Positions 8,520-34,797 of a stretch of 41,687 bases of DNA are shown here, one piece after another. The position numbers and the translations under genes are program-made. The notes below the pieces were generated by a model. The model saw only the letters and a program-made list of their open reading frames with translations, was not told the origin of the DNA and ran no database searches. Every line of letters begins with the position of its first letter. The first letter of the stretch is position 1. The stretch spans positions 1 through 41,687 of the forward strand of contig CBDULB010000043.1 of the NCBI GenBank assembly GCA_965367965.1, in the 5' to 3' direction. This DNA is from an uncultured bacterium (GTDB lineage Bacteria; Verrucomicrobiota; Verrucomicrobiia; Verrucomicrobiales; DEV007).

Positions 8520-9146
8520 ATGGCTGACGACCCCGACATTCCCACCGATTCCCTTTCGCTGCGCCTGGCTGCGGCCAACGGCTTGATCCGCCGCCGGCGC
8601 ACCATCAAGCCCGACAAGATGAGCGACAAGCCGATCGAGAAGCTGCATCTCGCATCGATCCTGGAAAATGCCAACTGGGCGCCGACGCACGGCAAAACTG
8701 AGCCCTGGCGGTTTACGATTTTCACCGAAGACGCCCGCGAAACGCTGGGTGATGCGATGCAGGAAATCTATCTCGACATCACCCCGGGCGATGGCTTTCG
8801 CGCTGACAAATACGATAAGCTGGCGCGCAATCCGATGGCGGCACCGGTGATCATTTCGATTGGTATGAAACGCCAGGACAGCGAGAAGATTTCCGAGACC
8901 GACGAGCTCGCCGCCGTTGCCTGTGCCGTCCAGAATATGCACCTGACGGCATCGGCGATCGGTCTGGCCGGCTTCTGGTCGTCGCCGCCGGTGTGCGATA
9001 CGCCGGAGATGTTGAAATTTCTCGAGCTCGATCCCAAGCGCGACCGTTGCCTCGGCCTGTTTTACCTTGGCTGGCCCGCGGATGAAGACGACTGGCCGGA
9101 AGGTCAGCGCGGCAATCTGGCGGACAAAGTGGTATGGAGGCACTGA
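8520..9146 (+). CDS. Nitroreductase family protein (~208 aa).
   Basis: Fits the nitroreductase / NADH-dehydrogenase fold family (RRRRTIKPDKMSDKPIEKLHLASILENANWAPTHGKTEPWRFTIF...AVQNMHLTASAIGLAGFWSS). ATG at 8520. The track start at 8472 is a TTG. Confidence 0.65.
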   Translation: MADDPDIPTDSLSLRLAAANGLIRRRRTIKPDKMSDKPIEKLHLASILENANWAPTHGKTEPWRFTIFTEDARETLGDAMQEIYLDITPGDGFRADKYDKLARNPMAAPVIISIGMKRQDSEKISETDELAAVACAVQNMHLTASAIGLAGFWSSPPVCDTPEMLKFLELDPKRDRCLGLFYLGWPADEDDWPEGQRGNLADKVVWRH

Positions 9147-9661
9147 CGACAGCGCTCAGCGACGGCACGATCTACACCCTGAAAGTCAGCTGCGTGTGGT
9201 TGTTCATCGTCGGTGGCTTCATCGGCACCTTTCTGCCGGTGGTGCCCGGCACGGTGTTCATTTTTCTCGGCTGCCTGGCGCACTACGTTTTCTTCGGCTA
9301 CGAGGAGAGCGCGATCTCGTGGACGGGCCTGGTCGCCATCGCGTTGCTGCTGATTCTGTCGCTGGTGGTTGACTGGGCGGGCGGTGCGGTCGGCGCCAAA
9401 TATTATGGAGCCAGCCGATGGGGCATCGTCGGTGCGCTGGTCGGTGGACTGGTCGGTATTTTCTTTCCCTTTCCCGGACTGATCATCGGCCCGCTGATCG
9501 GCGCTTTCGCGTTCGAGATGGCCTTCGCCAAAAAGAAAATCAAGCCGGCCGGCAAGTCGACTTGGGGAACATTTCTCGGCAGTGTCGGCGGACTGGTGGC
9601 GAAAGTCGTGGTCGCCCTGGCCATGGTCGTCTGGTTCGTTGTCGACCTGATGCTCGGCTAG
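9134..9661 (+). CDS. DUF456-like small membrane protein (4 TM helices, Gly-rich).
   Basis: Highly hydrophobic protein with GxxxG-rich helices. Its start overlaps the nitroreductase stop by 13 nt (ATGGAGGCACTGA), which implies translational coupling. Confidence 0.55.
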   Translation: MEALTTALSDGTIYTLKVSCVWLFIVGGFIGTFLPVVPGTVFIFLGCLAHYVFFGYEESAISWTGLVAIALLLILSLVVDWAGGAVGAKYYGASRWGIVGALVGGLVGIFFPFPGLIIGPLIGAFAFEMAFAKKKIKPAGKSTWGTFLGSVGGLVAKVVVALAMVVWFVVDLMLG

Positions 9662-9743
9662 GCGCTGGCGCGCCGTTCTTTGGGCGTGGTTCTTTGTTCG
9701 TTGTTGCTTGCTTGCGCTTCGGGCGCGGAAGCCGTAATCTCCA

Positions 9744-10165
9744 GACGGAACGGGCCGGAGAAGATCGCTGTTTTCCCTGCATCTTCGGATGTGGGCGAGC
9801 TCAGAGGAAAGTCCGGACACCGCAAGGCAGCATCGCCGTGCGAAAGCGCGGGACGCGGAGGGCGCAAGCCACCGTGGACGGATAGTGTCGCAGAAAATAA
9901 ACTACCCCCGCCACTTCGGTGGCGACGGGAAAAGGTGAAACGGCGAGGTAAAAGCTCACCGCCCCGAGGGTAACCGAGGGGGCACGACAAACCCCGTGCG
10001 GTGCAAGACATAACAGAGCAAACGGGCCGCCTGCCCGGCTTCGCAGATTCCTTCGGGAGTCGGCGGAATGTGTTCGGGTAATAGTCGCACTAGATAAATG
10101 ATCTTCCTGTCAGGCCCCCGGGCCGAAGCAGAACAAAATCCGGCTTATTTCGGCCCGTTCCACCT
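9744..10165 (+). ncRNA. rnpB: RNase P RNA, bacterial type A (rnpB), ~420 nt.
   Basis: Conserved motifs read off the sequence: GAGGAAAGTCCGGACACC (P4 5' strand, 9804-), AGTGTCGCAGAAAATAAACTACCCCC, AAAGGTGAAACGGCGAGGTAAAAGCTCACCG (P10-P12 region), ACAGAACAAAATCCGGCTTAT (P4 3' strand). P1 pairs GGAACGGGCCG (9747-9757) with CGGCCCGTTCC (10151-10161). No long ORF is credible here. Confidence 0.9.
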
Positions 10166-12526: not shown

Positions 12527-13537
12527 TCAATGCGCCGGGGCGGAGTGCAGCTCAGCCCTGCAGTCGATCCGGGCTGCGGCGACCGTAGCGGTGATGCCGT
12601 GGGCGAGATCGACCGTCGGTCGCCAGTCGAGCAGATCGCGGGCTTTGGAAATATCGAGCGATTTGCGCAAGGGCTGTTCGCGTTTTGCTCCGTGGAAAAT
12701 GGGGGCGCGATTTTTGCCATCGAAAGCCCGGCTGACCTGGCGGACGACGTCAGAAATGGCGACTGGATTGGCGCTGCCAAAATTGATTGCCGCGCCGTTG
12801 ACGTCCGCGCGGTCGAGTTTTTCGCCGGCGGCGAGGTAGGCGCGCGCCATGTCGTCGACCTGTAAAAAATCGAGCTCGGTGGTGCCGTCGTCGCGGTCGC
12901 CGAAGTCGTAGGCTTGGCCTTTGATCAGGCGCTGAATGGCGCCGGGGATGAGTCGGCAGAAATGCCGGTCGCCGGGACCGTAGGTGTTCATGAATCGACA
13001 CGACACGACCTTCAGGCCGTAGGCGTTGGCGTGGCTGTGAATGGCGACTTCGGCGGCGACTTTCGAGGCGGCGTAGGCGTGGTTGATCGGTCCCGGGGGA
13101 TGGTCTTCGGCGATCGGATCGGTGCAACTGAGGCTGCCGTAGACGGCGCCACTGGAGGCAAAAACCAGGCGTCGGGCGTTGCGCGAGCGGCGCATGGCTT
13201 CGAGCACCGACAGGGTTCCCTCGAGATTGATCGACCAGGTTTCGGCAGGATCGATCAGGCTCAGTGGAACCAGTGGCTGGGCGGCGAGGTGAAACACGGT
13301 GTCGATGTCTCGTTCTTCGAGCAGGCGCTGGAAGGAGGCCTGATAGCGAATGTCGGCGTCGACAAAGTGACACCGATCGCGGTCGCGGTCGCGATCGTCC
13401 GGGCGCTTGCGGTCGACAATGGTGACCCTGGCGCCGCAAGCGATCAGGTGCGTGACCAGATGGCTGCCGCCAAAGCCGCTGCCGCCGGTGACCAGCACCG
13501 GACGGCCCTGCCAATGGGAGTTTCGCCGGACGGACAT
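12527..13537 (-). CDS. NAD-dependent epimerase/dehydratase family protein (extended SDR), 336 aa.
   Basis: N-terminal Rossmann motif VLVTGGSGFGGSHL. YxxxK catalytic motif (YAASK). Last gene of the EPS operon. Confidence 0.8.
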   Translation of the reverse strand: MSVRRNSHWQGRPVLVTGGSGFGGSHLVTHLIACGARVTIVDRKRPDDRDRDRDRCHFVDADIRYQASFQRLLEERDIDTVFHLAAQPLVPLSLIDPAETWSINLEGTLSVLEAMRRSRNARRLVFASSGAVYGSLSCTDPIAEDHPPGPINHAYAASKVAAEVAIHSHANAYGLKVVSCRFMNTYGPGDRHFCRLIPGAIQRLIKGQAYDFGDRDDGTTELDFLQVDDMARAYLAAGEKLDRADVNGAAINFGSANPVAISDVVRQVSRAFDGKNRAPIFHGAKREQPLRKSLDISKARDLLDWRPTVDLAHGITATVAAARIDCRAELHSAPAH

Positions 13538-13540
13538 GGC

Positions 13541-14650
13541 CTAGGCGGCCCCCACGGTAGCGGCCTGTGGTTGCTCGTGATGTTGAACGGCCGTGTGATT
13601 GTCGGCGACGCGGTGATAAAACTCGGCGCAATGAAACAGGCCGTCGCCGAAGCTGGTGCGCGGTCGATAGTCGATGGCGGCGCGGAGTTTTTCTGCATTC
13701 AGGCGCTGCCGTTTCAGCGAGATGATCTGCTGGCCGGCGGCTTTGTGATCGATGACGCTGTAGCCGCGGGCGCGGATTTCGGCGGCGGCGTTGAGATTGT
13801 GCGGCGCGGCGACGAGGGCGGCGGCGCTGACGATTTGCTCCATCGCTTCGCGGGTCGAAAGGTGGGCGCAACCCATGAGGTTGTAAGCTTCGCCGATGCA
13901 CGCGGGACGGGCGGTCAGTTCGAGAATGATTTCGACGGCGTCGTCGATGTAGAGGTATTCACGATGGTGATCGAGTGAGTCGAGATAGAGCTCGGGACTT
14001 TCGCCGCGATAGATGCCGCTGAACGATTTTGGCACCAGCCGGTATTCGGTGTTGAAGTCGTAGGGGCCGATCAGGTTGCACATGCGCAGGATCGTCACCG
14101 GCAGACCGAACACTTCGTGGTAGGTGCGGGCGAGAATATCGGCGGCCAGTTTGGAGGCGTCGTAGACTCCGATGGCGCGCAGCGGAGTGACCTCTTCCTG
14201 GTAAGCCGGGCCATCGAGTTCGCCGTAAACTTTGTCGGTCGAGGCGTGGAAGATCCCGCGTGGTGTCTGCCCCGAAGTGCGCACCGCTTCGAGCAGGCCG
14301 ACCACACCCATGGTGTTGGTCTCGATGGTTCGGCCGGGTTCTCTGACGGCCTTTTCAATCACGGCGGCGTGGGCGGCGCAGTTGAAGATGTAGTCGAACG
14401 GCGTCTGCTGCAGCAGGGCGGTCATCTGGGCGACGTTGGTGACGTCGCCGGTGACCGTATAAATGCGTTCGCGAATGCCGTAGCCAGGGCAGTTGATCAG
14501 CGACGGCCGGCGGGTATCGGTGTCGCGGTCGAGGGCCCAGACTTCGGCGCCGGCTTCGAGCAGGCGCCGGGCCAGATGGGCACCGACAAAGCCGTAGCCG
14601 CCGGTGATGAGGATGCGTTGACCGCGATAGATTTCGTCGTTTCCGTTCAT
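13541..14650 (-). CDS. NAD-dependent epimerase/dehydratase family protein (extended SDR), ~369 aa.
   Basis: ILITGGYGFVGAHL Rossmann motif. YDASK catalytic motif. The track ORF (start 14902) carries an 84-aa Pro/Arg-rich N-terminal extension that overlaps the upstream gene. I used the ATG at 14650, which is 8 nt after the HlyD stop. Confidence 0.75.
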   Translation of the reverse strand: MNGNDEIYRGQRILITGGYGFVGAHLARRLLEAGAEVWALDRDTDTRRPSLINCPGYGIRERIYTVTGDVTNVAQMTALLQQTPFDYIFNCAAHAAVIEKAVREPGRTIETNTMGVVGLLEAVRTSGQTPRGIFHASTDKVYGELDGPAYQEEVTPLRAIGVYDASKLAADILARTYHEVFGLPVTILRMCNLIGPYDFNTEYRLVPKSFSGIYRGESPELYLDSLDHHREYLYIDDAVEIILELTARPACIGEAYNLMGCAHLSTREAMEQIVSAAALVAAPHNLNAAAEIRARGYSVIDHKAAGQQIISLKRQRLNAEKLRAAIDYRPRTSFGDGLFHCAEFYHRVADNHTAVQHHEQPQAATVGAA

Positions 14651-14657
14651 GGCAGGT

Positions 14658-16229
14658 CTAGGATTGCTGGCTGAAGTCGAAAGGGCTGTCCATCGGTGCG
14701 ATGGCTTCCGGCTCGATCGGGGCGACGACCGGATGGCCCGGTTCGGTCGGCTTCGTGTTGGGAGTTTGCGCTTCGTTCGCAGGCAAGGGCAGGGAAGCGG
14801 GTGTTGTCTCGACCTGTGGCGGCTCGGTGCTTGCGGCTTCGCTGTCGCTGTCGGCGTCAGCGAGTTCTTCAGGTGCCGTGGCGGGTTTTTCTTTTGAGCC
14901 AAACGTGTTTACCAGTGATCCGATCCAGGCCACAGGGTTGAGGTTGGAAGTGCGGATGTGGACCTGCGCGCTGATGCCGCTGCGCAGGTTGTCGACGTCG
15001 CCATCGGGTTCGATTTTCACCAGTACTTCCTCGGGGGTGAGACGCAGGAACGGCGAGTCGGCATCGGTCGCGCTGATGAAGTTGTGGCCGATCGCGACTA
15101 CCGTGCCGGTGATTGAATCGTCTAGCGCCGGGAATTTGATCGTCGCGCGGTCGCCGTAGGCGATGTTTTCGGCTTCAGCATATTTGAAGCTGGCGATGAT
15201 CCACACGCGGTCGTCGGTTTCGAGGGTGACGATGGGGTCACCGGCTTGAACCGATGAACCGGGATGATGGTGCACGGCGAACACGCGACCGGCGCGGTGC
15301 GCAGCGATGGTACTCTGGTCAACGGTGGTGCGCAGGGTGGTGGCTTCGAGTTGGGTCTGGCCAATCTCGGTGGCGACTTTGGCGGCGTGCAGCTGCAACT
15401 CATCGAGCCAGCTGCGGACGACTCCGGCATGATAGTGACGTCCCTGAGCGGCGTTTTCGGTGATCAGTTTCTGCAGTTCGAGTTCGCTGCGTTTTTCTTC
15501 AAGGCGTTTGGCGACGCGCAAACGACTGCTCTCGGCTTCGAGAAATTCAAAATTCTTGGCCGAGCCACGGCGCACGCTGCCATTCAGTTCGCTGGCGAGT
15601 TTACCGGCGAGTTCGAGTTGAATGTCGAGCTCTTCGATTTCCATGCCGAGCATGGTTTCGTTGCGCCTGGAGATTTCGTGAAGCAGTTCGAGGCGTTGCT
15701 TTTCTTCATCGATGGCACGAGCCACCTGATCTGCTTCGAGGCGTTTCAGCTCGAGAATTTCTTCGATGCGTTGCAACTGCATGCCGAGCCCTGCGGCATC
15801 GAGGCGGGCGATCACCTGACCGGTTTCGATGTCGGCGGCTTCGTTGACGTCGACTGCGGAGACGACTCCCGGGGTGACCGCGCGCAGATTGATCAAGTTG
15901 CCGACGGTGGTGCCCTGCATGCTGGCGGCGGTGGTCAGTTCGCTGATCAGGAAGTAGATCGCGAATATCCCGACAATGAGCGCGGTGACGGTCCACAACG
16001 CGGAGTTGCGGCGGGACGGCTTGGGCGCGGCGGCGTGTGCTTCGGGGGTAGGTGCGGCCGAAGCTCCGGTGGGCGGTGCCGCGGCGAAAGGCGGGTCAAC
16101 CGGTTCAGCGGCATCTTGCCTGCCCGGAGTTCCCTTCTTAAAGCGTTCGGTATCTTCGAATATCGGGTGATGACCTTGTTTCGATTCGTTGGAATCGCTA
16201 CCTTGGTTTTTGGACGACGATGGATGCAT
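14658..16229 (-). CDS. HlyD-family membrane fusion protein (periplasmic adaptor), 523 aa.
   Basis: Cytoplasmic N-terminal tail, a single TM (ALWTVTALIVGIFAIYFLI), a long coiled coil (LQRIEEILELKRLEADQ...), then barrel-sandwich/beta-barrel segments (VSAVDVNEAADIETGQVIARLD ... GDPIVTLETDDRVWIIASF). P/E/A-rich C-terminal tail. Confidence 0.75.
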   Translation of the reverse strand: MHPSSSKNQGSDSNESKQGHHPIFEDTERFKKGTPGRQDAAEPVDPPFAAAPPTGASAAPTPEAHAAAPKPSRRNSALWTVTALIVGIFAIYFLISELTTAASMQGTTVGNLINLRAVTPGVVSAVDVNEAADIETGQVIARLDAAGLGMQLQRIEEILELKRLEADQVARAIDEEKQRLELLHEISRRNETMLGMEIEELDIQLELAGKLASELNGSVRRGSAKNFEFLEAESSRLRVAKRLEEKRSELELQKLITENAAQGRHYHAGVVRSWLDELQLHAAKVATEIGQTQLEATTLRTTVDQSTIAAHRAGRVFAVHHHPGSSVQAGDPIVTLETDDRVWIIASFKYAEAENIAYGDRATIKFPALDDSITGTVVAIGHNFISATDADSPFLRLTPEEVLVKIEPDGDVDNLRSGISAQVHIRTSNLNPVAWIGSLVNTFGSKEKPATAPEELADADSDSEAASTEPPQVETTPASLPLPANEAQTPNTKPTEPGHPVVAPIEPEAIAPMDSPFDFSQQS

Positions 16230-16298
16230 GACGGGTGTTGGAAAAGAGACCGGGGGAGGGGGATTGTTTCGATGCGGCGATAGGGCTTACCTTTTAAG

Positions 16299-17810
16299 TC
16301 AGAATGGTGGCGGTACGACTTTCAGAACCACCAGCAGGAGGATGACAAAGACGGTGGCGCTCGCGGCCATGGTGACCCGCGACTGGATCATGCCGAGCAG
16401 GCTGGTGGTGCTGTTGGTGACGGCGCTTTCTTCGCCCTTCGACCAGCTCTGATGACCGAGATGAAACAGGCCGTAAATTTTGATAACCGAGCCGACCGCC
16501 TGATCGTAGAGCTGCAGTGGAATCATTACCGGCGACATCTTCAAGGTACCGCCGGACACCACCCAGAGTTGAGCCAGGCGCACCATGATGACCCAGCCGA
16601 TGTAGACCAGCAGGAGATAGGGATCGACGAAGATGGCCAGCAGCACCGCACCGAGGGGCCCGACCATGCCGGTCCACATCGACAGCCGTTGATCGAGAAA
16701 GCACAGCCACATGAACAACGGCATGCCCTGCGGGCCGAGTGCCAGACAGCGGACATTGTTGCGCAGCATGTTGCCGTACCAGCGCGACATCAGTGTTGTG
16801 GTCAGTTCGAAGAAGGGCAGGTCGCGATCTTCCATCGCGTAGACCCAGGCATCGGGCGCATACAGCATGCGCCAGCGGTTTTCTAAAACGCAGAACAGGG
16901 TGCTCTTGTCGTCGCCGAACAAAAAATCGATGCGGCCGTGGACCGGGTGATCGATGAAGTCGTGCTCGAGCCGCTCGATGAATTCGTCGGAAAAAGCGAT
17001 GCCGGCGCGCACGAAGGATCCGCGTCCCGTCAGTGTCATGACGCGACGCGACTGCGAATGCGACGACATGTAGAAATGGCGCTTGGCAAACTTCAACGCG
17101 AACCATTGGGTGATGATCCAGCGGGGTGTGTGCCGGGGCGCCTCGTTGGTGGTCATCGCGCCGAGCCCGGGATCGAGCCGGAACTGCGGCAGGCAGGTGG
17201 TGAAAATGCTGTCACCGAGTTCGCTGTCGCCGTCCATCAGCAGAACGGTTTCGTTGTCGAGGTTTGTCGAGGACAGTTGCTCGCGGTAGTCCCGCAGAAA
17301 GCGCAGTGCGTCACCGATAGCCATGCGCTTACCGTCAGCCTGCAGCGTGAAGCGTAGATCGATGTCGTCGTCGCCGTGTTTGTGAACGGCGTCACGGATC
17401 AGCTCCGCTTCGCCGCGGCTGGCGACACTGGCGACCACCACCGTTTCGCAATCGACTTTCGCCAGGGCGGCGACGATTGAGCGAAAGCAATTGCGGCTGG
17501 TTTCGGGCAGTTCTTTGTAGGAAAGCACGACCACGTACAGTCGCTCCGGAAGTTGCTCAGGAAGCCGGGCACAGAGCCGGCGCAGGCGCGGGTAGGTGAT
17601 GCCGTTGAACCACCATCCGCGGATCGCATTGCACATGAACCAGCCGTAGCGCCAGAGGCCGAAGGCGCCGATCACGAACACGGCGTGGCGATTCAAGTGC
17701 AGCACCCGGGCGGGCACCAGTGCCCAAACCCCTGCCGAGATCAGCAGTGCGATCAGCGTGGTCCGAAGGGCGGGACCGAAAAAGCTGGCAGTCGCAGGTC
17801 TTGGACTCAT
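16299..17810 (-). CDS. Integral-membrane family-2 glycosyltransferase (processive polysaccharide synthase type), 503 aa.
   Basis: N-terminal TM helices, a cytoplasmic GT-A domain (VVVLSYKE..., LLMDGDSELGD DxD-type motifs, R-W motif LMSRWYGN like Q/RxxRW of cellulose/chitin/hyaluronan synthases), then 3-4 C-terminal TM helices. Confidence 0.7.
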   Translation of the reverse strand: MSPRPATASFFGPALRTTLIALLISAGVWALVPARVLHLNRHAVFVIGAFGLWRYGWFMCNAIRGWWFNGITYPRLRRLCARLPEQLPERLYVVVLSYKELPETSRNCFRSIVAALAKVDCETVVVASVASRGEAELIRDAVHKHGDDDIDLRFTLQADGKRMAIGDALRFLRDYREQLSSTNLDNETVLLMDGDSELGDSIFTTCLPQFRLDPGLGAMTTNEAPRHTPRWIITQWFALKFAKRHFYMSSHSQSRRVMTLTGRGSFVRAGIAFSDEFIERLEHDFIDHPVHGRIDFLFGDDKSTLFCVLENRWRMLYAPDAWVYAMEDRDLPFFELTTTLMSRWYGNMLRNNVRCLALGPQGMPLFMWLCFLDQRLSMWTGMVGPLGAVLLAIFVDPYLLLVYIGWVIMVRLAQLWVVSGGTLKMSPVMIPLQLYDQAVGSVIKIYGLFHLGHQSWSKGEESAVTNSTTSLLGMIQSRVTMAASATVFVILLLVVLKVVPPPF

Positions 17811-17956
17811 AAGTGAAAAGTCTATTGATTACGATAAGTAAACAATGAAAACAAGAGTTGTTTATGGTTATTTTATTTAACATATCAGAAATGAATTTTA
17901 TTATTGCAATAATTTTCAGTAATGATATTTTCCCAGTCTCGTCATAATTACTGGAA
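17811..17956. promoter_or_regulatory. Extremely AT-rich (~25% GC) divergent intergenic region between the GT2 synthase and the TolC-like OMP. Contains perfect palindromes.
   Basis: ATTATTGCAATAAT (17900-17913) is a 14-bp perfect palindrome. TAAACAA-N12-TTGTTTA lies at 17839-17864. The GC content contrasts sharply with the flanking ~65% GC coding DNA. Confidence 0.6.
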
Positions 17957-19813
17957 ATGAACACCTCAAACTTCTCTAGCCGTATCGCTGCGGTGCTGGC
18001 CCGCGGGTCGCTCGCCGTAGCGATGATTTCACTGGCCAGCTGTGCCCTGCCGCAGCTCGCTGACAACAAGCCCTACGTGGTACCCGACGGTGCTGCGGTG
18101 GACACCCTCTACAGCAGTTCGCCCGACCAGGCCGGTCACGGCAAACACACTTACTCCGGCAGTTATGCTGACAGTCGCCACGTGCAGGGCGCCGGCATCG
18201 ACAGCCATCCGCGCGTCGAAGCGGCGCGCTGGTTTGCCGAAGGCCTGCGCGGTGAAGCCCGTGCGCTTTCCGCCGAACGTTACCCGCGACTCAACTTGCA
18301 GGCGGCATCGGGTTACGCTTACACCAACGGCGGGTCGAGCTCCGGCTCGTCGCGCTCGTCGGTGAGCAGCAGTTGTGGCTCGGGCAGCTACGGTGGCAGT
18401 TGCGGTAAGAGTACCTGCTCAAAATGCGGTGGTGGATCCACCGCCGGCAGTGGCGGGTCGATGGGCTCCAGCTGGCGCGCCCGTCATGAAGCGCGCCTGG
18501 TGCTCAGCCAGCGAGTGTTTGACGGGCGTCGTTTGAAGTACGTCGAAGAAGCCGGTTTGTCGCGTGCCGCCGCCGCCGACCTGACGGCCCACACCGTGGC
18601 GCAGACTGTCGCGATCGAATACAGCACGGCGCACATCGATTATCTCCAGGCTCGCGACATCACTTCGCTGGCCGACCGCCTCGTCGACGCGCATCGCAAA
18701 ATGCTCGCAGTTACCACCGACAAACTCGGTCGCGGTCTGCAGTCACAGGCCGATGTCGATCTGGTGCGCTCGCGCCTCGAACGCAGTCAGTCGCTTTTAA
18801 AAACCCAGCAACTGTTGATGAACGACGCCGAAGTGCGTTTCCGCACCATCTCGGGCAAGTCGCCCAACCACGTCGCTGCTCCGCCGCAACCCAGCCGGAA
18901 TCAGCTGGCTGCGCTCAAGCTCGATCAGAACTGGGAGGTCAAAGCTGCCAACGAAACCTTGCGCTCGCGCCAGTTGGAAAATCAGGCGGCCGATCGACTC
19001 AAGTATCCGAATGTCGACATCGAAGTCGGTGCCCGCGCCGGTGATGGCTTTTACGGTGTCGCGTCTGCCGACGAGGAAGTGCAGGCCCTGCTGGTATTCA
19101 GCTGGGACATTCTCGACGGTGGCTTTCGCCAGGCCGAAAAATATCGCACCGAGGCCGGTATCCGCGAAGCACAGAGCCTGGTCGAAGCCTCCAAGCTCGA
19201 CGTGCGTCAGCTCTGGGACCTCGGTCGCGAGCTGCGCGGCAAATCGGGCGAACGCCTGAGCGAGTTGAACGGCTATGTCTCCAACCTCGGCAAAGCCATC
19301 GATGCGCTCGAAGCTGACTATGCCTCGAGCAAGCAGCCGGTGCTCAACGTGCTCGACATGCAGGACGAACTGTTCGAAGCCAAAGCTGAGCGGGTGCTGG
19401 AAAAATACAACATGCTGCGCGGCGGTTACGCCATGCTCGCCGCTTCCGGCGAACTGGTGAAAACGCTGGAACACTCCGGCGTGCCGACCACTCGTCAGTC
19501 GACCGGCACCAGCCTTGCCTCGACCACCAGCTGGTTCAGGAAGGCCGCAACGCACGTGCCGGCCTATGCTACGCAGCCGGCAAAAAGTGTGCCCGGTAAA
19601 ACCGCAGCTCCCGCTACTCAAAGCGTGCCGCAACCGCGCAACGTTCGTCAGACGGCCCACGCTCAGGCGCCGGCGGTTCGCGATACCCGTCCGTCATCGC
19701 AGGTCATCAAACGCATGGCACCGGCCACTCAACAATCGCCGATCAATCGCGATTCGGTGTATCAGCGTCGCAATCCTTACGCCAACCCGCTGGGCGGCTT
19801 CTCCGGATTCTGA
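17957..19813 (+). CDS. TolC-like outer membrane efflux protein (outer membrane factor). Carries a Gly/Ser/Cys-rich insert and a P/Q/T/A-rich C-terminal tail.
   Basis: Signal peptide with a possible lipobox (MISLASCA). OMF-type helical repeat segments (HIDYLQARD...LVRSRLERSQSLLKTQQLL..., RQLENQAADRLKYPNVDIEVGARAG...). Insert NGGSSSGSSRSSVSSSCGSGSYGGSCGKSTCSKCGGGSTAGSGGSMGSS at ~18326-18472. Low-complexity tail from ~19400. Confidence 0.65.
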   Translation: MNTSNFSSRIAAVLARGSLAVAMISLASCALPQLADNKPYVVPDGAAVDTLYSSSPDQAGHGKHTYSGSYADSRHVQGAGIDSHPRVEAARWFAEGLRGEARALSAERYPRLNLQAASGYAYTNGGSSSGSSRSSVSSSCGSGSYGGSCGKSTCSKCGGGSTAGSGGSMGSSWRARHEARLVLSQRVFDGRRLKYVEEAGLSRAAAADLTAHTVAQTVAIEYSTAHIDYLQARDITSLADRLVDAHRKMLAVTTDKLGRGLQSQADVDLVRSRLERSQSLLKTQQLLMNDAEVRFRTISGKSPNHVAAPPQPSRNQLAALKLDQNWEVKAANETLRSRQLENQAADRLKYPNVDIEVGARAGDGFYGVASADEEVQALLVFSWDILDGGFRQAEKYRTEAGIREAQSLVEASKLDVRQLWDLGRELRGKSGERLSELNGYVSNLGKAIDALEADYASSKQPVLNVLDMQDELFEAKAERVLEKYNMLRGGYAMLAASGELVKTLEHSGVPTTRQSTGTSLASTTSWFRKAATHVPAYATQPAKSVPGKTAAPATQSVPQPRNVRQTAHAQAPAVRDTRPSSQVIKRMAPATQQSPINRDSVYQRRNPYANPLGGFSGF

Positions 19814-19924
19814 TTTAAAAAGCCCCCGCACTTTGTAGCCGCGTTGCCTGCTACTGAACCATTTCGTCGGTCTGCCTGATCCAGTGGCATACGAGGGCCG
19901 ACGGATGCTAGAGAAGCCCAAGTA

Positions 19925-21836: not shown

Positions 21837-21924
21837 AAAACAAGTCGAGACTTGCATGTCGCGTCACCTGTCGAGATAACAACAAGCTGCCGGGCGCGCG
21901 CTGCGCTCAGCGAATGATTTTACT

Positions 21925-23235: not shown

Positions 23236-23246
23236 TCTAACCGTAG

Positions 23247-28361: not shown

Positions 28362-31300
28362 TCAGCCGCAGGCAGCGACGTTGAGGTCAACAGCCCGTTG
28401 GGCAGCTTTTCGGCAAAAATTAAAGAACACCGCCGGCGTGATTGCCAGTCCAAGCAGGGTTGAACTGAACAGGCCGCCAACGATGACAATGGCCACCGGA
28501 TTGAGGATTTCCTTGCCCGGCTCATCGGCCGCGAGGATCAGCGGTATCAAAGCGATACCGGCCGACAGGGCGGTCATCAGCACCGGGGCGAGCCGTTCGA
28601 GCGTGCCGCGGACAACCATCTCACGACTGAAATTTTCGCCCTCATGGCGCATGAGGTGCAGGTAGTGGGAAATCATCATGATCTGATTGCGCGCGGCAAT
28701 CCCGGCGATGGCGATGAAGCCGACCAGTGTCGCGATGCTGATATTGTCGAGCGTGAAACGGGTGTAGAGCACCGCTCCGATCAGGGAGACCGGGATGTTG
28801 GTCAGTACCAGCAGCACGAAGCTGAAGCTTTGAAAGTAGCTGTAGAGCAGAAAAACGATGACCAGCAAAATGATCGAAGACATGATGATGATGGTTCGCG
28901 TCGCGGCTTGCTGCGCCTGATACTCGCCCTCGAAGGAAACTGAGTAACCTTTGGGTAGCGTCAGCTTGGCTGCGACATCGCGCTGCAGCTGTTCGACGAC
29001 GCGGTTGAGGTCGTTGGTTGTCGGATTGATGGAAACTACGAAGCGGCGCAGCGTGTTTTCACGGAGAATGGTGTTCGGTCCGGTCGCGTTGCGGATTACG
29101 GCGACGTAGCTGAGCGGAATGCGCTGGCCGCTCTGGGTATCGATGTAGAGATTTTGCAATCGCTCCGGATTCTCCCGCCACTCGAGGGGGAGTCTGACGA
29201 CGACATCGTAGACGCGTTGACCTTCATAAACTTCGCTGACCGCTTCACCACCCATCAGCGAAGCAAGCTCGGTATTGAGGTCGCCCGGCGTGACCCCGTA
29301 AGCGAGCGCACGCTCCCGATCGACTTCGATGCGCAGTTGCGGGATCGGTGCCTGTTGTTCGGTGCGAGCCTCCTCAAGTCCCGGGATCGCGCGTGCGATG
29401 GCGGCAACTTCGGTGCCGAGCCGACGCAGTTCTTCGAGCTCGGGACCGAAAATTTTCACCGCCACCTTTGCGGAGACGCCGCTGAGCATGTGTCCGACCC
29501 GGTCAGCCAGTGGGCCGCTCATGGCGCTGAAGGTTCCCGGAATAGTTCCCATGGTGGCACGGATATCCTTGAGCAATTGATCGCGGTCGGCTTCGCCTTC
29601 GGGAGTGAATTCGACATCGAATTCGACGGTCGACACCGGCACGACGTGGTCGCCGCGTTCGGCCCGCCCGACCCGGTAGCCGACCGTTTCGACCCCGGGC
29701 AGTCGCAGCAAAAGGTCCTGGGCCGTGCGCGACAATTGAGTGGTGGTGCGCAGCGATGTACCGGGGGCGGTGGTCATGGCGATGACCGCGGTCGGTTCCC
29801 GGAAGGGTGGCAAAAATGCTCCGCCCATCTTGGTGTAGGTGAAATAGCTGAGCACCAGGAGCGCGCCGGTAATCGCAAAAACGGCGAGCGGCTGAGACAG
29901 CGAAAAACGCAACCACGTCGAGCTGAACAGGCCTTTCAAAAACCGTACGATGGCGCCGTCGCCGTGCGCCTGTTTGCCCTTCGGATTCAGTAAAAACGAG
30001 CTGAGCACCGGGATCACCGTCAACGAAACCACGAACGAAGCGCCCATGCTGACGATGGTGGCGATGGCGATCGGTGTGAACAGGCGGCCTTCAACACCGC
30101 TCAATGCGAGCAGGGGAAGGAAGACCAGAATGATCAAAATTGTCGCGTAGAATATCGATGAGCGAACTTCGGCTGAGGCTTGCGCGATGACTTCGATTCT
30201 CGGTTTGGGGGCGGCGAGGGCCGCGTTTTCACGCAGTCGTCGATAGACGTTTTCGACATCGACAATGGCGTCGTCGACGACCATGCCAATGGCCACGGCG
30301 AGGCCGCCGAGGGTCATCGAATTGACACTCAAATCGAGCAGGTCAAAAACCAAAATGGTGATCGCCAGCGACAGTGGTATCGCAGTCAGGGTGATGATCG
30401 TCACCCGGAAGTTAAACAGGAACAGGAACAGCACGATGGCGACCATGAGGGCTCCGTCGCGCAGGGCTTCACCGAGGTTGCCGATGGCGAGATCGATGAA
30501 GTCACGCTGTCGATAGACGGTGATCAGTTGCACGCCTTCCGGCAAAGTTTGCTGTAAATCTTCGATGATGGCTTCGACTTTTTCGGTCAGCGCGATGGTA
30601 TCGAAGCCGGGCGATTTGCGGACGTTGATGATGACGCCGGGATCACCTTTGAGCTCCTCGGCGTCGGCTTCATCGATGGCGAACCTGTCCAGATTGGTGC
30701 CAAGCCCGGCATCGCCGCGTTGCGGCTCGACGTCCCAGACGACGGTGGCGACATCGGACAGGCGAATCGCACGGTCGTTTTCGTGGGTGACCACGGTGTT
30801 GCCGATTTCGACGAGGTCGGTGGTCATGGCCAGATTGCGCACCATGATTTCCTGATCCTGCTCGGTGAGGAAGCCACCTGTGGTGTTCTTGACGGCCTTG
30901 CTCGCGGCATCGCGGATCTGTTCGAAGGACACGCCGAGGGCGAGCATTCTTTCCGGTTGGGGTTGCACCTGAATTTGCTTCACTCCGCCGCCCATCGACA
31001 GCACTTCGGCAATGCCGGGAATCGATTGAAAGCGTTTGCCGATGACCCAGTCGGCAAGTTCCCGAAGCTCACGCGGGTTGGTATTGCCACTCGGGTCGCG
31101 TACCCCAACCATCATGATATCGCCCATCAGCGAAGCGACCGGAGTCATGTAAGGGGTGATGCCGGCGGGTAAAAATTCAACGGCACCGGTCAGTCGTTCC
31201 TGCACGAACTGGCGGGCCTGATAGATGTCGGTTCCCCAATCGAATTCGACGAATACCAGCGACAGTGAGATGTCGTTGGTGCTGCGCAGACGGCTGACGC

Positions 31301-31532
31301 CGGTGACGCCCATGAGCGCATTTTCGAGCGGTATGGTGACCAGAGTTTCGACTTCTTCGGGCGCGTAGCCGGGCACTTCGGTGAGGATTGACACCGTCGG
31401 CTTGGTTAAGTCGGGCAGTACGTCCACCGGCAGTTCGATGGTCTTCTTCACGCCCAGTACGAGAAGAATCAAGGCCACGGCAAGCACCAGGGCACGCTGT
31501 GCGAGGCTGAGACGGATGAGGGTGTTGAGCAT
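28362..31532 (-). CDS. czcA: CzcA/CusA-family heavy-metal efflux RND permease (HME-RND), 1056 aa.
   Basis: Full-length RND with 12 TM helices and two large periplasmic loops. N-terminus MLNTLIRLSLAQRALVLAVALILLVLGVKKTIELPVDVLPDLTKPTVSILTEVPGYAPEEVETLVTIPLE is typical of CzcA/CusA. The gene symbol reflects the family, not a proven substrate. Confidence 0.85.
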   Translation of the reverse strand: MLNTLIRLSLAQRALVLAVALILLVLGVKKTIELPVDVLPDLTKPTVSILTEVPGYAPEEVETLVTIPLENALMGVTGVSRLRSTNDISLSLVFVEFDWGTDIYQARQFVQERLTGAVEFLPAGITPYMTPVASLMGDIMMVGVRDPSGNTNPRELRELADWVIGKRFQSIPGIAEVLSMGGGVKQIQVQPQPERMLALGVSFEQIRDAASKAVKNTTGGFLTEQDQEIMVRNLAMTTDLVEIGNTVVTHENDRAIRLSDVATVVWDVEPQRGDAGLGTNLDRFAIDEADAEELKGDPGVIINVRKSPGFDTIALTEKVEAIIEDLQQTLPEGVQLITVYRQRDFIDLAIGNLGEALRDGALMVAIVLFLFLFNFRVTIITLTAIPLSLAITILVFDLLDLSVNSMTLGGLAVAIGMVVDDAIVDVENVYRRLRENAALAAPKPRIEVIAQASAEVRSSIFYATILIILVFLPLLALSGVEGRLFTPIAIATIVSMGASFVVSLTVIPVLSSFLLNPKGKQAHGDGAIVRFLKGLFSSTWLRFSLSQPLAVFAITGALLVLSYFTYTKMGGAFLPPFREPTAVIAMTTAPGTSLRTTTQLSRTAQDLLLRLPGVETVGYRVGRAERGDHVVPVSTVEFDVEFTPEGEADRDQLLKDIRATMGTIPGTFSAMSGPLADRVGHMLSGVSAKVAVKIFGPELEELRRLGTEVAAIARAIPGLEEARTEQQAPIPQLRIEVDRERALAYGVTPGDLNTELASLMGGEAVSEVYEGQRVYDVVVRLPLEWRENPERLQNLYIDTQSGQRIPLSYVAVIRNATGPNTILRENTLRRFVVSINPTTNDLNRVVEQLQRDVAAKLTLPKGYSVSFEGEYQAQQAATRTIIIMSSIILLVIVFLLYSYFQSFSFVLLVLTNIPVSLIGAVLYTRFTLDNISIATLVGFIAIAGIAARNQIMMISHYLHLMRHEGENFSREMVVRGTLERLAPVLMTALSAGIALIPLILAADEPGKEILNPVAIVIVGGLFSSTLLGLAITPAVFFNFCRKAAQRAVDLNVAACG

Positions 31533-31589
31533 GAGCAGCGGGCAGATAGCCGGGGTTCTCTGTTGGCGGGGCTGAGCGTTTTGTCTTTG

Positions 31590-32756
31590 CTAGGCAGTGA
31601 CGCTGCCACCTTTACTGCGCCGTTTGTTCCAGAGCTGTTGCAGTGTTATCAGCAGCATCATGGTGATGACGCCCGCGTAAATCTGCAGGTAGAGGTTCAT
31701 CTTGCCGCCGTCGTGTGAATCGCCGTGGTCGTGACCGGCGTGACTGTCCGCGGAGGCGGCTTTGTCAGCGTCGGTGAGTTCGGACCCGTCTTCAGCATGT
31801 TCGTGACCGTGCGCTGCATCGAGGGCTTCCTTGAGCGAAATACCACTGCCACCACCGGCAAAACCCAGAGAATAGGACCCCTGAGTGACGACTTCTTCGC
31901 CGGGGAAAAGGCCGCCGATGACTTCGACATAGCGGTCGTTTTGCTCGCCAAGTTGAACGGGAATTTTAACGAATGCATTGGGCAGATCCAGGTGCCTGGT
32001 GAAGACGACCCGTTTGGCGGGGTCGCCCTGGATCGCAGTGCGTGGTACGGCGATGACGTCGGAGCGGCTGGCGGTGACGATGGAGAATTCGGCACGCATT
32101 CCGGGTTGGAGTTTACTTTCCGGATTGTCGATTTCAAAAATGGCATCGACGGTTCCCGCTTCGCGGTCAGCGGCCACTCGATAGCGGCTTAACTTAACGG
32201 TGATGGGTTCACCGCCGATTGCCGGAACATGAATGCGGGCGATGGTGCCGACAGCGACACCGGCGGCTTCTTTTTCCGGGATCTTGGCGATCGCCCACAT
32301 TTTTGACCGGTCGGAAATGTCGAGCAACTCCGTTTCGGGTTCGATTGGTTCGCCGAGCCGGACGTGGGAATCGATGACCAGGCCGGCTTTGGGGGCACGC
32401 AGCGCGATGGTCGGTGGCGGGTTGCCGGGCTGGCGACTTTCGACTTTGACCAGCACCTGATCCTTTTCAACGAGGTCACCCTCGAAGGCATTGACTTCGA
32501 CCGCCCGGCCGGAGATGCGCGATGACAGTACCGATCGACTGGCCGGGATGTCTTCGATGCGGCCGATGGCAAACACGGTGGTCTCGAAGTCGCGTTTCTG
32601 GACAACGACGGTTTCGATGCGCAGATTTTTCACGCCCTGTTCATCGAGAATGACCGTGTTGGCGGCGATGTCGGCATCGACCGGACCTTCGGCGCAGGGT
32701 GATGCTGCCACCAACCCGCCGATACTCAGCAGGACTGTTAAAAGAGTCGTTTTCAT
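31590..32756 (-). CDS. czcB: Efflux RND periplasmic adaptor (CzcB/CusB-like) with a His-rich C-terminal extension followed by a hydrophobic tail.
   Basis: Membrane fusion protein core (barrel-sandwich, beta-barrel). The C-terminus reads AAHGHEHAEDGSELTDADKAASADSHAGHDHGDSHDGG and then KMNLYLQIYAGVITMMLLITLQQLW, a predicted TM helix. Confidence 0.75.
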   Translation of the reverse strand: MKTTLLTVLLSIGGLVAASPCAEGPVDADIAANTVILDEQGVKNLRIETVVVQKRDFETTVFAIGRIEDIPASRSVLSSRISGRAVEVNAFEGDLVEKDQVLVKVESRQPGNPPPTIALRAPKAGLVIDSHVRLGEPIEPETELLDISDRSKMWAIAKIPEKEAAGVAVGTIARIHVPAIGGEPITVKLSRYRVAADREAGTVDAIFEIDNPESKLQPGMRAEFSIVTASRSDVIAVPRTAIQGDPAKRVVFTRHLDLPNAFVKIPVQLGEQNDRYVEVIGGLFPGEEVVTQGSYSLGFAGGGSGISLKEALDAAHGHEHAEDGSELTDADKAASADSHAGHDHGDSHDGGKMNLYLQIYAGVITMMLLITLQQLWNKRRSKGGSVTA

Positions 32757-32783
32757 AGGGATCGGATCGGAGTGTGCCGGGGA

Positions 32784-34148: not shown

Positions 34149-34356
34149 GAATCGGAAGCGTGAGTGATGTAGCAGACTGAAAGGAAAGACGGTATGGCGG
34201 TAAGCCCCTGCGCATGGCGGCAGGCATGGCGCTGCACGGCGAATGGCGGCAGGCCGGGGCGGCGAACAGGGCGAAATACCAATCGCGAAACGACGACGCT
34301 TCGCGATAGAGACGTTTCGCACGCAGAAAAATGCGCCGCGAAGTGGACCCCGGGGA

Positions 34357-34797
34357 TCAGACCAGAAAGCGGCACAGCTGTGCCGCCAGGGTGGGCGGAG
34401 AACCGCGCCGGGAAGAATCAGACAGCGTGTGAGACTGCGCACCGCCGGTCAGCAGGCTGGCCGACATAGGTGGTACTGTCACGGTTGCCGGAAGCAGGCC
34501 AACGAAAGGCGAGGCGATCGGCGCCGGAGAATCCGGTGTTAATGCCGTCAGCTCACGGCCATCTTCTTTGTGGCTGTCATCACAGGGAATCGCCGGAATG
34601 TCGCAGTCTGCAGCGGCGTCTGAACATAGCGCCGGATGGGCATGGGCCGAGTCGTGCGACTGCGACAACTGCGCTTGCGAATGGTGGTGGTGCTCAAGTG
34701 CCAGACTTGCCCAGACTTTGCACAGGCCGGTGCTGCCGCCGATCAGAAGATAGATCGACAGTGCCATCAAAGTCAGGCATCGGTACAGATTGCGCAT
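34357..34797 (-). CDS. Small secreted or membrane-anchored His/Cys-rich protein upstream of czcC. Candidate CzcI/CusF-like accessory metal-binding protein.
   Basis: N-terminal hydrophobic segment, then LEHHHHSQAQLSQSHDSAHAHPALCSDAAADCDIPAIPCDDSH. Its position (first gene of the czc-like operon) is consistent. Coding status is unverified. Confidence 0.4.
   Translation of the reverse strand: MRNLYRCLTLMALSIYLLIGGSTGLCKVWASLALEHHHHSQAQLSQSHDSAHAHPALCSDAAADCDIPAIPCDDSHKEDGRELTALTPDSPAPIASPFVGLLPATVTVPPMSASLLTGGAQSHTLSDSSRRGSPPTLAAQLCRFLV

Follow-up and report, generated by a model that had tools for sequence, protein, structure and literature searches.

Organization of the locus

The sequence analysed here, referred to as the window, comprises positions 1 to 41,687 of contig CBDULB010000043.1 (GCA_965367965.1) of an uncultured Verrucomicrobiales bacterium, lineage DEV007. 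It carries a glycosyltransferase gene (GT2), followed on the same strand by the genes for a HlyD-type adaptor (MFP) and two SDR proteins, and, in divergent orientation, the gene for a TolC-like outer membrane factor (OMF). All five ORFs, which an earlier note on this DNA had read as a polysaccharide export module, were found where the note had placed them and with the domains it had assigned (Table 1).

Table 1. Features of the module and other window regions considered in the text
Feature	Coordinates	Strand	Description
GT2	17810..16299	-	503 aa; Pfam Glyco_tranf_2_3, E 1e-24
MFP (HlyD-type adaptor)	16229..14658	-	523 aa; Pfam HlyD_3 + HlyD_D23
SDR1	14650..13541	-	369 aa; Pfam Epimerase + GDP_Man_Dehyd
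SDR2	13537..12527	-	336 aa; Pfam Epimerase + GDP_Man_Dehyd
OMF (TolC-like)	17957..19813	+	618 aa; Pfam OEP, two stretches
GT2/OMF divergent intergenic region	17811..17956		AT-rich, 146 bp
Sigma-70-like site	17877-17904	+	
MFS gene	21925-23235	+	436 aa
RND pump with its own OMF	34442..28362		complete; separate from the module

The gaps separating GT2, MFP, SDR1 and SDR2 measure 69, 7 and 3 nt, respectively, a spacing compatible with a single operon. The mechanical ORF list has SDR1 starting at a TTG (14902), upstream of the ATG at 14650; the latter is the more plausible start, because it avoids an overlap with the MFP gene. The arrangement is kept in relatives, a point that the earlier note had left to be checked: the operon and the divergent OMF are found together in all six loci of the window's lineage, each of which also retains the SDR pair. 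Synteny within this lineage, however, extends to flanking genes (Nramp, RNase H, MFS, TauE and GFO), so that lineage conservation alone is no proof of a functional link.

The region between GT2 and OMF has a GC content of 24.7%, against 59.7% for the window, and contains the only sigma-70-like site found between positions 12000 and 20600. No Rfam family was matched within it at E<=0.1. It is predicted to be a divergent promoter region, common to the GT2 operon and the OMF.

The synthase and its adaptor

The AF2 model of GT2 (pLDDT 88.6) features two N-terminal and about five C-terminal TM helices; the protein has no C-terminal cytosolic domain. The top 20 matches of a Foldseek search against PDB are hyaluronan, chitin and cellulose synthases, the best folds being those of hyaluronan synthases (E 2e-14, TM up to 0.65), followed by chitin synthases and BcsA. 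D193-G-D195, T261-G-R263, G299-D-D-K-S303 and R343-W344 show no variation among 35 homologues, and the TM-flanked core thus contains the DxD, the GDDKS-type loop and the xxRW acceptor motif of the Alg8 family. These residues presumably match those mutated in Alg8 (Remminghorst 2009). The modelled fold and the invariant motifs are those of a membrane-integrated processive synthase, and the protein would be active as such, in keeping with the earlier note; a lipid-linked, non-processive transferase, the finding which that note had set against its own reading, is disfavoured by the processive-synthase fold and the intact motifs.

Over its full length, GT2 is 33-39% identical (E 1e-78 to 1e-87) to the GT2s of alginate-like clusters, and its homologues bear, in their sources, the name "glycosyltransferase Alg8". 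Based on the synthases of such clusters and on these source names, we assign GT2 to the Alg8 (alginate synthase) family, paired with an Alg44 counterpart. The relatives at about 35% identity lie near AlgD-, AlgK-, AlgG-, AlgX-, AlgL- and AlgA-like genes: by gene clustering, a UDPG/GDP-mannose dehydrogenase was found in 35 loci, an alginate lyase in 25, a NosD/AlgG-like gene in 20, ManC in 17 and AlgX in 11. The suggestion of a little-characterised pathway has therefore to be given up, since GT2 and MFP belong to the Alg8/Alg44 family, with relatives in full alginate-like clusters.

In the MFP model (AF2, pLDDT 69 overall, with low confidence outside residues 73-430), residues 1-71 form a disordered cytoplasmic tail and residues 73-98 a TM helix; the model further contains a lipoyl domain, a long alpha-hairpin (148-305) and a beta-barrel (343-426), and its C-terminal tail is Pro-rich and disordered. 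The cytoplasmic tail, previously put at about 85 aa, is accordingly shortened to about 72-75 aa. Three helices (148-220, 226-261 and 274-305), the longest measuring 73 residues, form a hairpin of sufficient length to reach an OMF, as in tripartite TolC-dependent exporters. In PDB the fold is closest to those of EmrA (4tko, E 5.5e-20), EmrAB-TolC and MacA, which come from TolC complexes. The N-terminal TM anchor, lipoyl domain, long hairpin and beta-barrel, the lack of a membrane-proximal domain, EmrA as the best match and an OMF of the TolC family are all shared with EmrAB-TolC and HlyBD-TolC. The inner-membrane partner, in contrast, is here a glycosyltransferase synthase and not an MFS or ABC transporter, and a polysaccharide chain would be carried as it grows.

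As in Alg44-type proteins, the MFP is encoded next to the synthase and has a single TM segment and a periplasmic MFP-like domain. [quoted passage not shown] DxSxxG): no PilZ domain match was found in it, as already remarked in the earlier note, nor was the pattern RxxxR...[DN]xSxxG, whereas PilZ plus HlyD, the Alg44 architecture, is found in 46 out of 78 partner MFPs. From its sequence, the window MFP appears to be an Alg44-like, PilZ-less protein which has lost the c-di-GMP sensor. Since PilZ is missing from MFP and a C-terminal cytosolic domain from GT2, the module is probably controlled through transcription from its AT-rich divergent promoter, and not through either protein binding c-di-GMP.

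Two short motifs are kept in the MFPs of the lineage, HPIFEDTER in the tail and PMDSPFDFSQQ at the extreme C-terminus. The TolC-docking motif RxxxLxxxxxxS is not found at the hairpin tip, its sole regex match being located mid-helix, at residue 179. The tip itself (residues 221-230, RGSAKNFEFL) is unlike the RLS motif in sequence, and is the best-conserved stretch of the first two hairpin helices (conservation 0.85, against 0.58-0.80 in the other segments of residues 141-250).

The outer membrane factor and its linkage

The OMF shows the two-repeat OEP architecture of the TolC family and is predicted from its lipobox (LASC, Cys29) to be a lipoprotein; TolC structures, including that of E. coli, align to residues 178-498. 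Its best NCBIfam model is TIGR01844 (type_I_sec_TolC), and it is considered a divergent member of the family because the score, 106 bits, falls under the model cut-off. Residues ~125-176, some 50 aa, form a Ser/Gly/Cys-rich stretch, and the protein ends in a tail of about 100 aa. A search of 1.84 billion cluster representatives returned only 7 sequences at E<=1e-30, and relatives outside the window lineage are at most 30% identical. Of the 11 indexed OMF homologues, 6 are on contigs whose reported lengths match those of contigs which also bear a GT2 homologue. Because the RND pump of the window has its own OMF, the TolC-like protein is a second, independent outer membrane factor. The window ORFs that were scanned include no gene of the Wza/Wzc, AlgE/AlgK or BcsC type, which agrees with the earlier statement that the route is of neither the Wza/Wzc nor the BcsC/AlgE type.

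Linkage was evaluated over 89 loci of the Alg8/Alg44 family. In 87 of them (84 out of 86 in an earlier locus set), spread over many phyla, the MFP gene is the co-oriented neighbour of GT2, so that the MFP is to be regarded as the synthase's own partner. Fifteen distinct loci, belonging to the window's Verrucomicrobiales lineage, to Planctomycetota and to one Spartobacteria genome, with one locus untyped, have an OEP gene no more than about 2 kb away from the pair; the position of a TolC-like OMF beside the synthase/adaptor pair, pointed out in the earlier note, is thus a recurrent one. Gene order is GT2-MFP in the window lineage and MFP-GT2 in Planctomycetota, where the genes beyond the OMF differ from locus to locus. 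The linked OMFs form three clades, mutually undetectable by phmmer, and the corresponding GT2s two separate clades. A Sel1/AlgK-like gene was detected by profile search near the pair in 35 of the 89 loci, and none of these coincides with an OMF-linked one. The periplasmic part of the MFP spans 367-448 aa in OMF-linked loci (252 in one case), against mostly 171-307 aa in Sel1-linked ones.

These data bear on the possibility that the Alg8/Alg44-like pair is genuine, but that the OMF serves type I secretion or efflux, the polymer leaving by another way or staying in the periplasm or at the cell surface. Some findings are in its favour: most of the family, about 70 retrieved loci, has no OMF gene within 10 kb; the nearest OMF relative outside the lineage (30% identity) adjoins what looks, by eye, like a putative C39-type ABC exporter fragment; the best model is that of a type I secretion TolC; and the synteny of the lineage reaches unrelated flanking genes. 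The recurrence of the linkage in three OMF clades, in two gene orders and with variable outer flanks, its strict mutual exclusion with AlgK-like Sel1 genes and the long hairpins of OMF-linked MFPs all argue for a channel working with the pair, as do the single divergent promoter region serving OMF and operon and the finding of no ABC or type I secretion gene among the window ORFs scanned with Pfam. We regard a separate role of the OMF as rather unlikely.

A different assignment would join MFP and OMF with the MFS protein into an EmrAB-TolC-like efflux pump, leaving GT2 as a mere neighbour, or the MFP as only a co-polymerase. EmrA, from an MFS-type tripartite pump, is indeed the top structural match of the MFP, and the OMF is followed, on its own strand, by the MFS and TauE genes, which recur in loci L001 and L086. 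Such a pump is nevertheless highly improbable. The MFP is co-operonic with GT2 and adjoins it nearly everywhere; a GFO oxidoreductase gene separates OMF and MFS in the window; the MFS is best matched by aromatic-acid/sialate symporter models, not by EmrB-type exporters. Moreover, a homologue of it lies near the pair in only three of the first 86 loci (L001, L006 and L017), a called MFS gene being found near the pair also in L086, while planctomycete loci feature OMF, MFP and GT2 without any MFS.

Putative precursor genes

Both SDRs score under every NCBIfam equivalog cut-off. SDR1 best matches, in PDB, the dTDP-glucose 4,6-dehydratase 6bi4 (115 bits), its STDKVYG and YDASK motifs, conserved across the lineage, aligning with STDEVYG and YSSSK; T-D-K replaces the T-D-E of RmlB, while Tyr and Lys are retained. 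Identity with RmlB was rejected, in view of this substitution and of a score of 150 bits against TIGR01181, whose cut-off is 365, and SDR1 is described as dehydratase-like only. It resembles an NDP-hexose 4,6-dehydratase and may act in precursor-sugar synthesis. Similarly, SDR2 is closest to the UDP-glucose 4-epimerase 4zrm (128 bits), conserves SSGAVYG and YAASK across the lineage and reaches 136 bits, under the cut-off, with the GalE model TIGR01179; its likeness is to an NDP-sugar 4-epimerase or 4-ketoreductase, with a putative role, again, in precursor supply.

The membership of GT2 in the Alg8 family could also mean that the product is ordinary alginate (polymannuronate), with GDP-mannuronate made via an AlgD encoded elsewhere and the SDRs as unrelated passengers, and in planctomycete OMF-linked loci a PL14 lyase gene does lie directly after GT2. 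Neither the window nor the other five lineage loci, however, revealed an AlgD or other dehydrogenase, a lyase, a C5-epimerase or a gene for acetylation; only 7 and 3 nt separate the SDR genes from the MFP gene and from each other, a translationally tight spacing, and the pair is kept in all six lineage loci; and GT2 is only about 35% identical to the members of alginate-like clusters. Alginate is, on this evidence, a very unlikely product.

Proposed export route and comparison with known systems

The reading that we consider probable is that of an Alg8/Alg44-family synthase-dependent exopolysaccharide module, in which a dedicated TolC-like channel replaces AlgK/AlgE as the exit. The cytoplasmic SDRs would turn a common NDP-hexose into a modified donor, in the simplest case by reduction or epimerisation of a 4-keto-6-deoxy intermediate. 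The Alg8-like GT2 would polymerise this donor and thread the chain through its own TM channel. Around the periplasmic exit of the synthase, the EmrA/HlyD-like MFP, held by its one-TM anchor, would assemble and reach the OMF with its alpha-hairpin; the partnership with GT2 is shown by their near-universal adjacency, and the putative docking to the OMF is supported by genetic linkage. The lipoprotein OMF, linked to the operon, would finally provide the outer-membrane duct. Compared with the earlier note, the synthase/MFP pairing, the OMF linkage and the conservation of gene order are retained, while the module is not an unclassified pathway and is less new than supposed.

With the Alg8/Alg44 and AlgK/AlgE system of Pseudomonas and Azotobacter the module shares the GT2 family and a synthase with a single-TM, MFP-like partner. 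It differs in the lack of PilZ, found in most partner MFPs, in the size of the MFP's periplasmic portion (about 430 aa, long hairpin included, against ~170-300 aa in AlgK-linked relatives), in the proposed TolC-like exit taking the place of the AlgK/AlgE porin route, and in the two SDRs standing in for the AlgD, lyase, epimerase and acetylation genes. "Atypical alginate operons" without algKE have already been described (PMC7112194).

Export by a synthase, a HlyD-like protein and TolC has itself been proposed before, as XcsAB-TolC and BgsBA-TolC. The XcsA-XcsB-TolC model of cyanobacterial cellulose secretion (Maeda 2018), as summarised in PMC8892547 and PMC12430437, likewise combines a membrane GT2 synthase, a HlyD-like adaptor and a TolC-like channel into a continuous route; in these accounts its TolC is unlinked and common to other systems, whereas the OMF is here dedicated and divergently linked. 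According to a review (PMC12430437), the Xcs model lacks validation and its genes are not in one operon. In Sinorhizobium meliloti, the two-gene operon of BgsB-BgsA likewise pairs a GT2 synthase with a HlyD-like MFP, and TolC is genetically required for production of a mixed-linkage beta-glucan; the C-terminal domain of BgsA, however, senses c-di-GMP, and TolC is a housekeeping channel encoded elsewhere, whose role could be indirect (PMC13438883). The window GT2 probably belongs to a family other than that of BgsB; a tblastn search with it against PLSDB plasmids returned no Sinorhizobium record.

To these systems the locus adds an OMF that is dedicated and genetically linked, an adaptor that has lost PilZ, and another complement of precursor genes. 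It thus provides gene-linkage support for a synthase-adaptor-TolC route which has so far been proposed only in cyanobacteria and rhizobia. A more far-reaching version, which we advance tentatively and hold to be possible rather than probable, is that the five genes encode a self-contained, c-di-GMP-independent machine, in which an Alg8-type synthase feeds straight into a type-I-secretion-like MFP/TolC duct and the product is an undescribed polymer, for example one based on a 6-deoxyhexose made by the dehydratase and reductase/epimerase pair. Were this true, the locus, its channel being both dedicated and linked, would be the cleanest system for settling whether TolC-type channels carry polysaccharide, and the Ser/Gly/Cys-rich stretch of the OMF could be a specific adaptation to the cargo, as could the terminal motifs conserved in OMF and MFP.

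Organization of the locus

The five ORFs described in the earlier note were all recovered by ORF listing and by Pfam and NCBIfam scans (see the table). The four minus-strand genes, encoding the Alg8-like synthase (GT2), a HlyD-type adaptor (MFP) and two extended SDRs (SDR1 and SDR2), are separated by gaps of 69, 7 and 3 nt. The region between GT2 and the divergent TolC-like channel gene (OMF) is 146 bp long, has a GC content of 24.7%, versus 59.7% for the window, and contains the sole sigma-70-like site found in the interval 12000-20600. An Rfam scan of the window revealed neither a c-di-GMP riboswitch nor any other RNA element as a substitute for PilZ: apart from RNase P RNA at another position of the window, it gave just a snoRNA match in the intergenic region, at chance level. 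No genes for Wza/Wzc, AlgE/AlgK or BcsC were found among the window ORFs scanned, in agreement with the previous view that the route is not of the Wza/Wzc or BcsC/AlgE type. The OMF is not the only channel of the cell, since a complete RND efflux operon has an OMF of its own.

Features located in the window
Feature	Position	Strand	Description
GT2	17810..16299	-	503 aa; Pfam Glyco_tranf_2_3
MFP	16229..14658	-	523 aa; Pfam HlyD_3 and HlyD_D23
HPIFEDTER	16141-16169		MFP residues 21-29, within the cytoplasmic tail
PMDSPFDFSQQ	14661-14700		extreme periplasmic C-terminus of MFP, after a Pro-rich linker of ~80 aa
SDR1	14650..13541	-	extended SDR, epimerase/dehydratase type
SDR2	13537..12527	-	extended SDR, epimerase/dehydratase type
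OMF	17957..19813	+ (divergent)	618 aa; OEP/TolC-family protein
Ser/Gly/Cys-rich stretch	18329-18484		OMF residues ~125-176, ~50 aa
OMF C-terminal tail	19460-19813		Pro/Ala-rich, ~100 aa, ended by conserved YQRRNPYANPxGGFSGF
GFO/IDH/MocA oxidoreductase, symporter-like MFS and TauE/SafE genes	20508-24059	+	follow OMF
RND tripartite efflux operon, complete	34442..28362	-	OMF 34442..32784; MFP 32756..31590; AcrB-type pump 31532..28362
RNase P RNA, bacterial class A	9749-10163	+	183.7 bits (Rfam)
Long ORF, off the window edge	2-4407	-	DUF3686 'ATPase involved in DNA repair' (623 bits), DUF7902, AAA domain
ORF opposite the long ORF	862-4449	+	1195 aa; without Pfam match
430-aa ORF	25548-26840	-	IS200-like Y1 transposase domain, residues 91-149 only

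The synthase and adaptor as members of the Alg8/Alg44 family

GT2 matched none of the NCBIfam models at E<=0.01 and, even at E<=10, no sequence in the PDB; the protein was therefore classified through fold search and gene context. Its AlphaFold model is confident (pLDDT 88.6), and the best PDB fold matches are hyaluronan synthases (E 2e-14, TM-score up to 0.65), chitin synthases and the BcsA cellulose synthase, all membrane-integrated processive enzymes. An alignment of 35 GT2 relatives shows four invariant motifs, D193-G-D195, T261-G-R263, G299-D-D-K-S303 and R343-W344: in processive GT2 synthases, these bind the donor, form the catalytic loop and supply the acceptor tryptophan. Fold and motifs fit the processive membrane synthase proposed at first, rather than a non-processive lipid-linked transferase.

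Many of the 275 relatives found in the protein database are named 'glycosyltransferase Alg8' at source; among genome records, the highest identity, 91%, is to a Verrucomicrobiales MAG (L006), which suggests that the window, too, originates from Verrucomicrobiales. With each species represented by a single genome, one scan detected relatives in at least 595 species: the family extends far beyond alginate producers. The loci analyzed were the 80 best plus those recovered through protein look-ups, and their gene content was determined by profile searches of all six-frame ORFs, which avoid the selection of shadow ORFs in this high-GC DNA. An MFP gene lies directly beside GT2, on the same strand, in 84 of 86 loci, the window and two near-duplicates counted, and in 87 of 89 after the addition of three loci, both exceptions being short contigs. 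A Pfam PilZ domain precedes the HlyD domains in 46 of 78 partner MFPs, an order which is the Alg44 architecture. Clustering counts of neighboring genes include UDPG/GDP-mannose dehydrogenases (35 loci), alginate lyases (25), NosD/AlgG-like proteins (20), ManC (17), AlgX (11) and AlgK-like Sel1-repeat genes (23, or 35 by a more sensitive profile search): these are the families of alginate operons. Source names, PilZ/HlyD partners and alginate-operon neighbors place the window pair, GT2 plus MFP, in the Alg8/Alg44 synthase and co-polymerase family, and the pathway, which was at first suggested to be possibly little characterised, is thus not an unclassified one. 'Atypical alginate operons', lacking algKE and modification genes, were reported in a 2020 survey (PMC7112194).

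Some relatives feature a different arrangement. In loci L007-L020, L027, L032 and L035, from Desulfobulbaceae, Desulfovibrionaceae, Aquificota, Campylobacterota and others, GT2 is ~800-950 aa long, with a C-terminal extension of ~300-440 aa. The PilZ motif of the partner MFPs is clear, and neither OMF nor Sel1 genes were found within 10 kb. A Pectate_lyase_3 domain is present in one such GT2 (P0018), and the extension could represent a fused domain for modification or export in the periplasm.

Linkage of the channel to the pair

An OEP gene linked to the GT2/MFP pair was found at 15 distinct loci: six forming the window lineage (the window, L001, L006, L086, L087 and L088), one untyped metagenome locus (L004), one Spartobacteria genome (L037) and seven Planctomycetota, including Stieleria marina and Rubripirellula obstinata. 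The linked OMFs form three clades, which pairwise phmmer cannot join, and the linked GT2s fall into two separate clades of a neighbor-joining tree; gene order varies (GT2-MFP versus MFP-GT2), and the planctomycete loci differ in the genes beyond the OMF. These differences suggest that the linkage reflects function and not synteny passed on by descent. OMF linkage and linkage to an AlgK-like Sel1 gene, found at 15 and 35 loci respectively, never occur together.

That the OMF serves something other than the pair is, in our opinion, less probable than that it serves the pair; such a role would be in keeping with the lineage flanks, which are syntenic as well, and with the MFP hairpin tip, where the RLS TolC-docking motif was not found. 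The GFO/IDH/MocA, MFS and TauE/SafE genes recur in part in L001, L086, L087 and L088, and could either provide sugar uptake or modification for the polysaccharide module or be a matter of mere lineage synteny.

Five planctomycete loci (L021, L026, L028, L029 and L033) show a divergent OMF followed by MFP, GT2 and, directly after GT2, a PL14 lyase; they define a different variant of the OMF-linked module, whose product is probably a polyuronide. PL14 genes lie near the pair in 18 further retrieved loci, for a total of 23 by profile search, versus 29 by clustering. In Stieleria (L029), an MMPL transporter adjoins the OMF and was considered as its partner, but was discarded, not being conserved in the other planctomycete loci.

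The adaptor

Pfam and motif-pattern searches detected no PilZ in the MFPs of the window and of its lineage, and the structural model likewise supports its absence, as already suggested in the earlier note; the cytoplasmic tail, there estimated at ~85 aa, spans about 72-75 residues instead. According to the AF2 model and the lineage alignment, this tail is disordered save for the conserved HPIFEDTER. The model features a TM helix (73-98), a lipoyl domain, a three-helix hairpin (148-220, 226-261 and 274-305) and a beta-barrel (343-426), and lacks a membrane-proximal domain. Both HPIFEDTER and the C-terminal PMDSPFDFSQQ are conserved within otherwise disordered tails, and may be docking peptides, with the synthase and the OMF or the cell wall as candidate partners.

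Of 13 OMF-linked MFPs, 1 has a canonical PilZ motif, versus 44 of 71 others, and the periplasmic part measures 367-448 aa in OMF-linked MFPs (with one exception, of 252 aa) versus mostly 171-307 aa in Sel1-linked MFPs; these figures are descriptive and carry no statistical test, the sequences being phylogenetically related. Both the outer-membrane exit and the c-di-GMP sensor of the Alg8/Alg44 family appear to be exchangeable modules.

The best PDB folds for the MFP model are EmrA alone, EmrA in the EmrAB-TolC complex and then MacA. MFP and OMF might accordingly be imagined as parts of an EmrAB-like pump, together with the nearby MFS, but this is unlikely, given that adjacency of GT2 and MFP is near-universal, that the window MFS is of the symporter type by NCBIfam, and that the planctomycete loci contain no MFS.

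The outer membrane channel

The OMF is predicted to be a divergent TolC-family lipoprotein, with a putative LASC lipobox; E. coli TolC aligns to residues 178-498 only. A search of 1.84 billion cluster representatives returned only 7 at E<=1e-30, every match outside the lineage being at most 30% identical, and 6 of the 11 indexed homologues are apparently on contigs also carrying a GT2 homologue. The nearest relative outside the lineage lies beside a gene fragment which, read by eye, resembles a C39-type ABC exporter, and the best NCBIfam model is type I secretion TolC: both hint, weakly, at a possible origin from T1SS-type channels.

The Ser/Gly/Cys-rich stretch is conserved in the lineage, as is the extreme C-terminus; most members keep its four Cys, and it is shorter in L088. 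It lies outside the TolC-aligned region; going by the TolC strand pattern, it would connect predicted barrel strands one and two as the first loop on the extracellular side. Together with the C-terminal tail, it might act as a lid at the surface or anchor the polymer.

Precursor genes and likely product

SDR1 and SDR2 are conserved in all six lineage loci, and both score under every NCBIfam equivalog cut-off. SDR1 aligns best to dTDP-glucose 4,6-dehydratases (115 bits) and keeps the catalytic Thr, Asp, Tyr and Lys, with a Lys at the position of the catalytic Glu (STDKVYG versus STDEVYG); an Asp-Lys pair is presumably shared by CDP-glucose 4,6-dehydratases. For SDR2, which contains the Ser-Tyr-Lys triad, the best alignment is to small UDP-hexose 4-epimerases (128 bits).

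Family membership would suggest alginate as the product, but the gene content of the lineage loci makes plain alginate unlikely: profile searches found no dehydrogenase, lyase, C5-epimerase or acetyltransferase beside the pair, and the product is therefore probably a different one. The simplest guess, by inference only, is a polymer of a 6-deoxy or 4-epimerised hexose.

Proposed export route and its relation to known systems

The best-supported reading, which we regard as reasonably probable, is that of a pathway leading from the SDR pair, through synthase and adaptor, to a dedicated channel. The SDRs would make the donor sugar, the Alg8-like synthase would polymerise it and move the chain across the inner membrane, the EmrA-like adaptor would bridge the periplasm, and the OMF would provide the exit. 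Since neither a c-di-GMP-binding module nor a riboswitch can be detected, control would be at the level of transcription.

For the cellulose of cyanobacteria, a synthase/HlyD/TolC route has been put forward (Maeda 2018, as related in PMC8892547); according to a 2025 review, this XcsAB-TolC model lacks validation and its three genes do not share an operon (PMC12430437). In S. meliloti, production of mixed-linkage glucan by BgsBA needs tolC (PMC13438883, 2026), although its authors do not exclude an indirect role of the housekeeping TolC. Unlike the unlinked Xcs genes, the window OMF is private, and divergently transcribed beside synthase and adaptor. Literature searches found no description of an Alg8/Alg44 pair with a linked TolC-like gene, nor of such modules in Planctomycetota or Verrucomicrobiota: what is new here is the combination, in a module of the Alg8/Alg44 family, of a swapped exit with the loss of the sensor and with new precursor genes.

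Three cyanobacterial loci (L061, L062 and L071) encode Alg8-like GT2s of 587-725 aa and PilZ-less MFPs, which resemble the window MFP in their short N-tails (36-58 aa) and long periplasmic parts (380-394 aa). No linked OMF was found at these loci, which would be compatible with reliance on a TolC encoded elsewhere, of the kind proposed in the Xcs model.

Loci like that of the window touch the question of whether TolC-type channels truly carry polysaccharides. A private OMF, mutually exclusive with the AlgK-type route across the family, provides comparative-genomic support for the tripartite model, and the small five-gene cassette could be studied by expression and dissection, free of the pleiotropic effects that tolC mutants show: the value of the locus thus lies in linked-gene evidence combined with a compact test system. 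Its practical interest, a possible new exopolysaccharide from Verrucomicrobia, is moderate.

Other features of the window

Mechanically listed ORFs overlapping the RNase P RNA, such as 9104..9820, are probably not genes, because of this overlap. The long minus-strand ORF at the window edge is, by its domain matches, a real gene, and the plus-strand ORF opposite to it was dismissed as a shadow ORF. The 430-aa ORF with a Y1 transposase domain is of unusual length for the IS200-like family.
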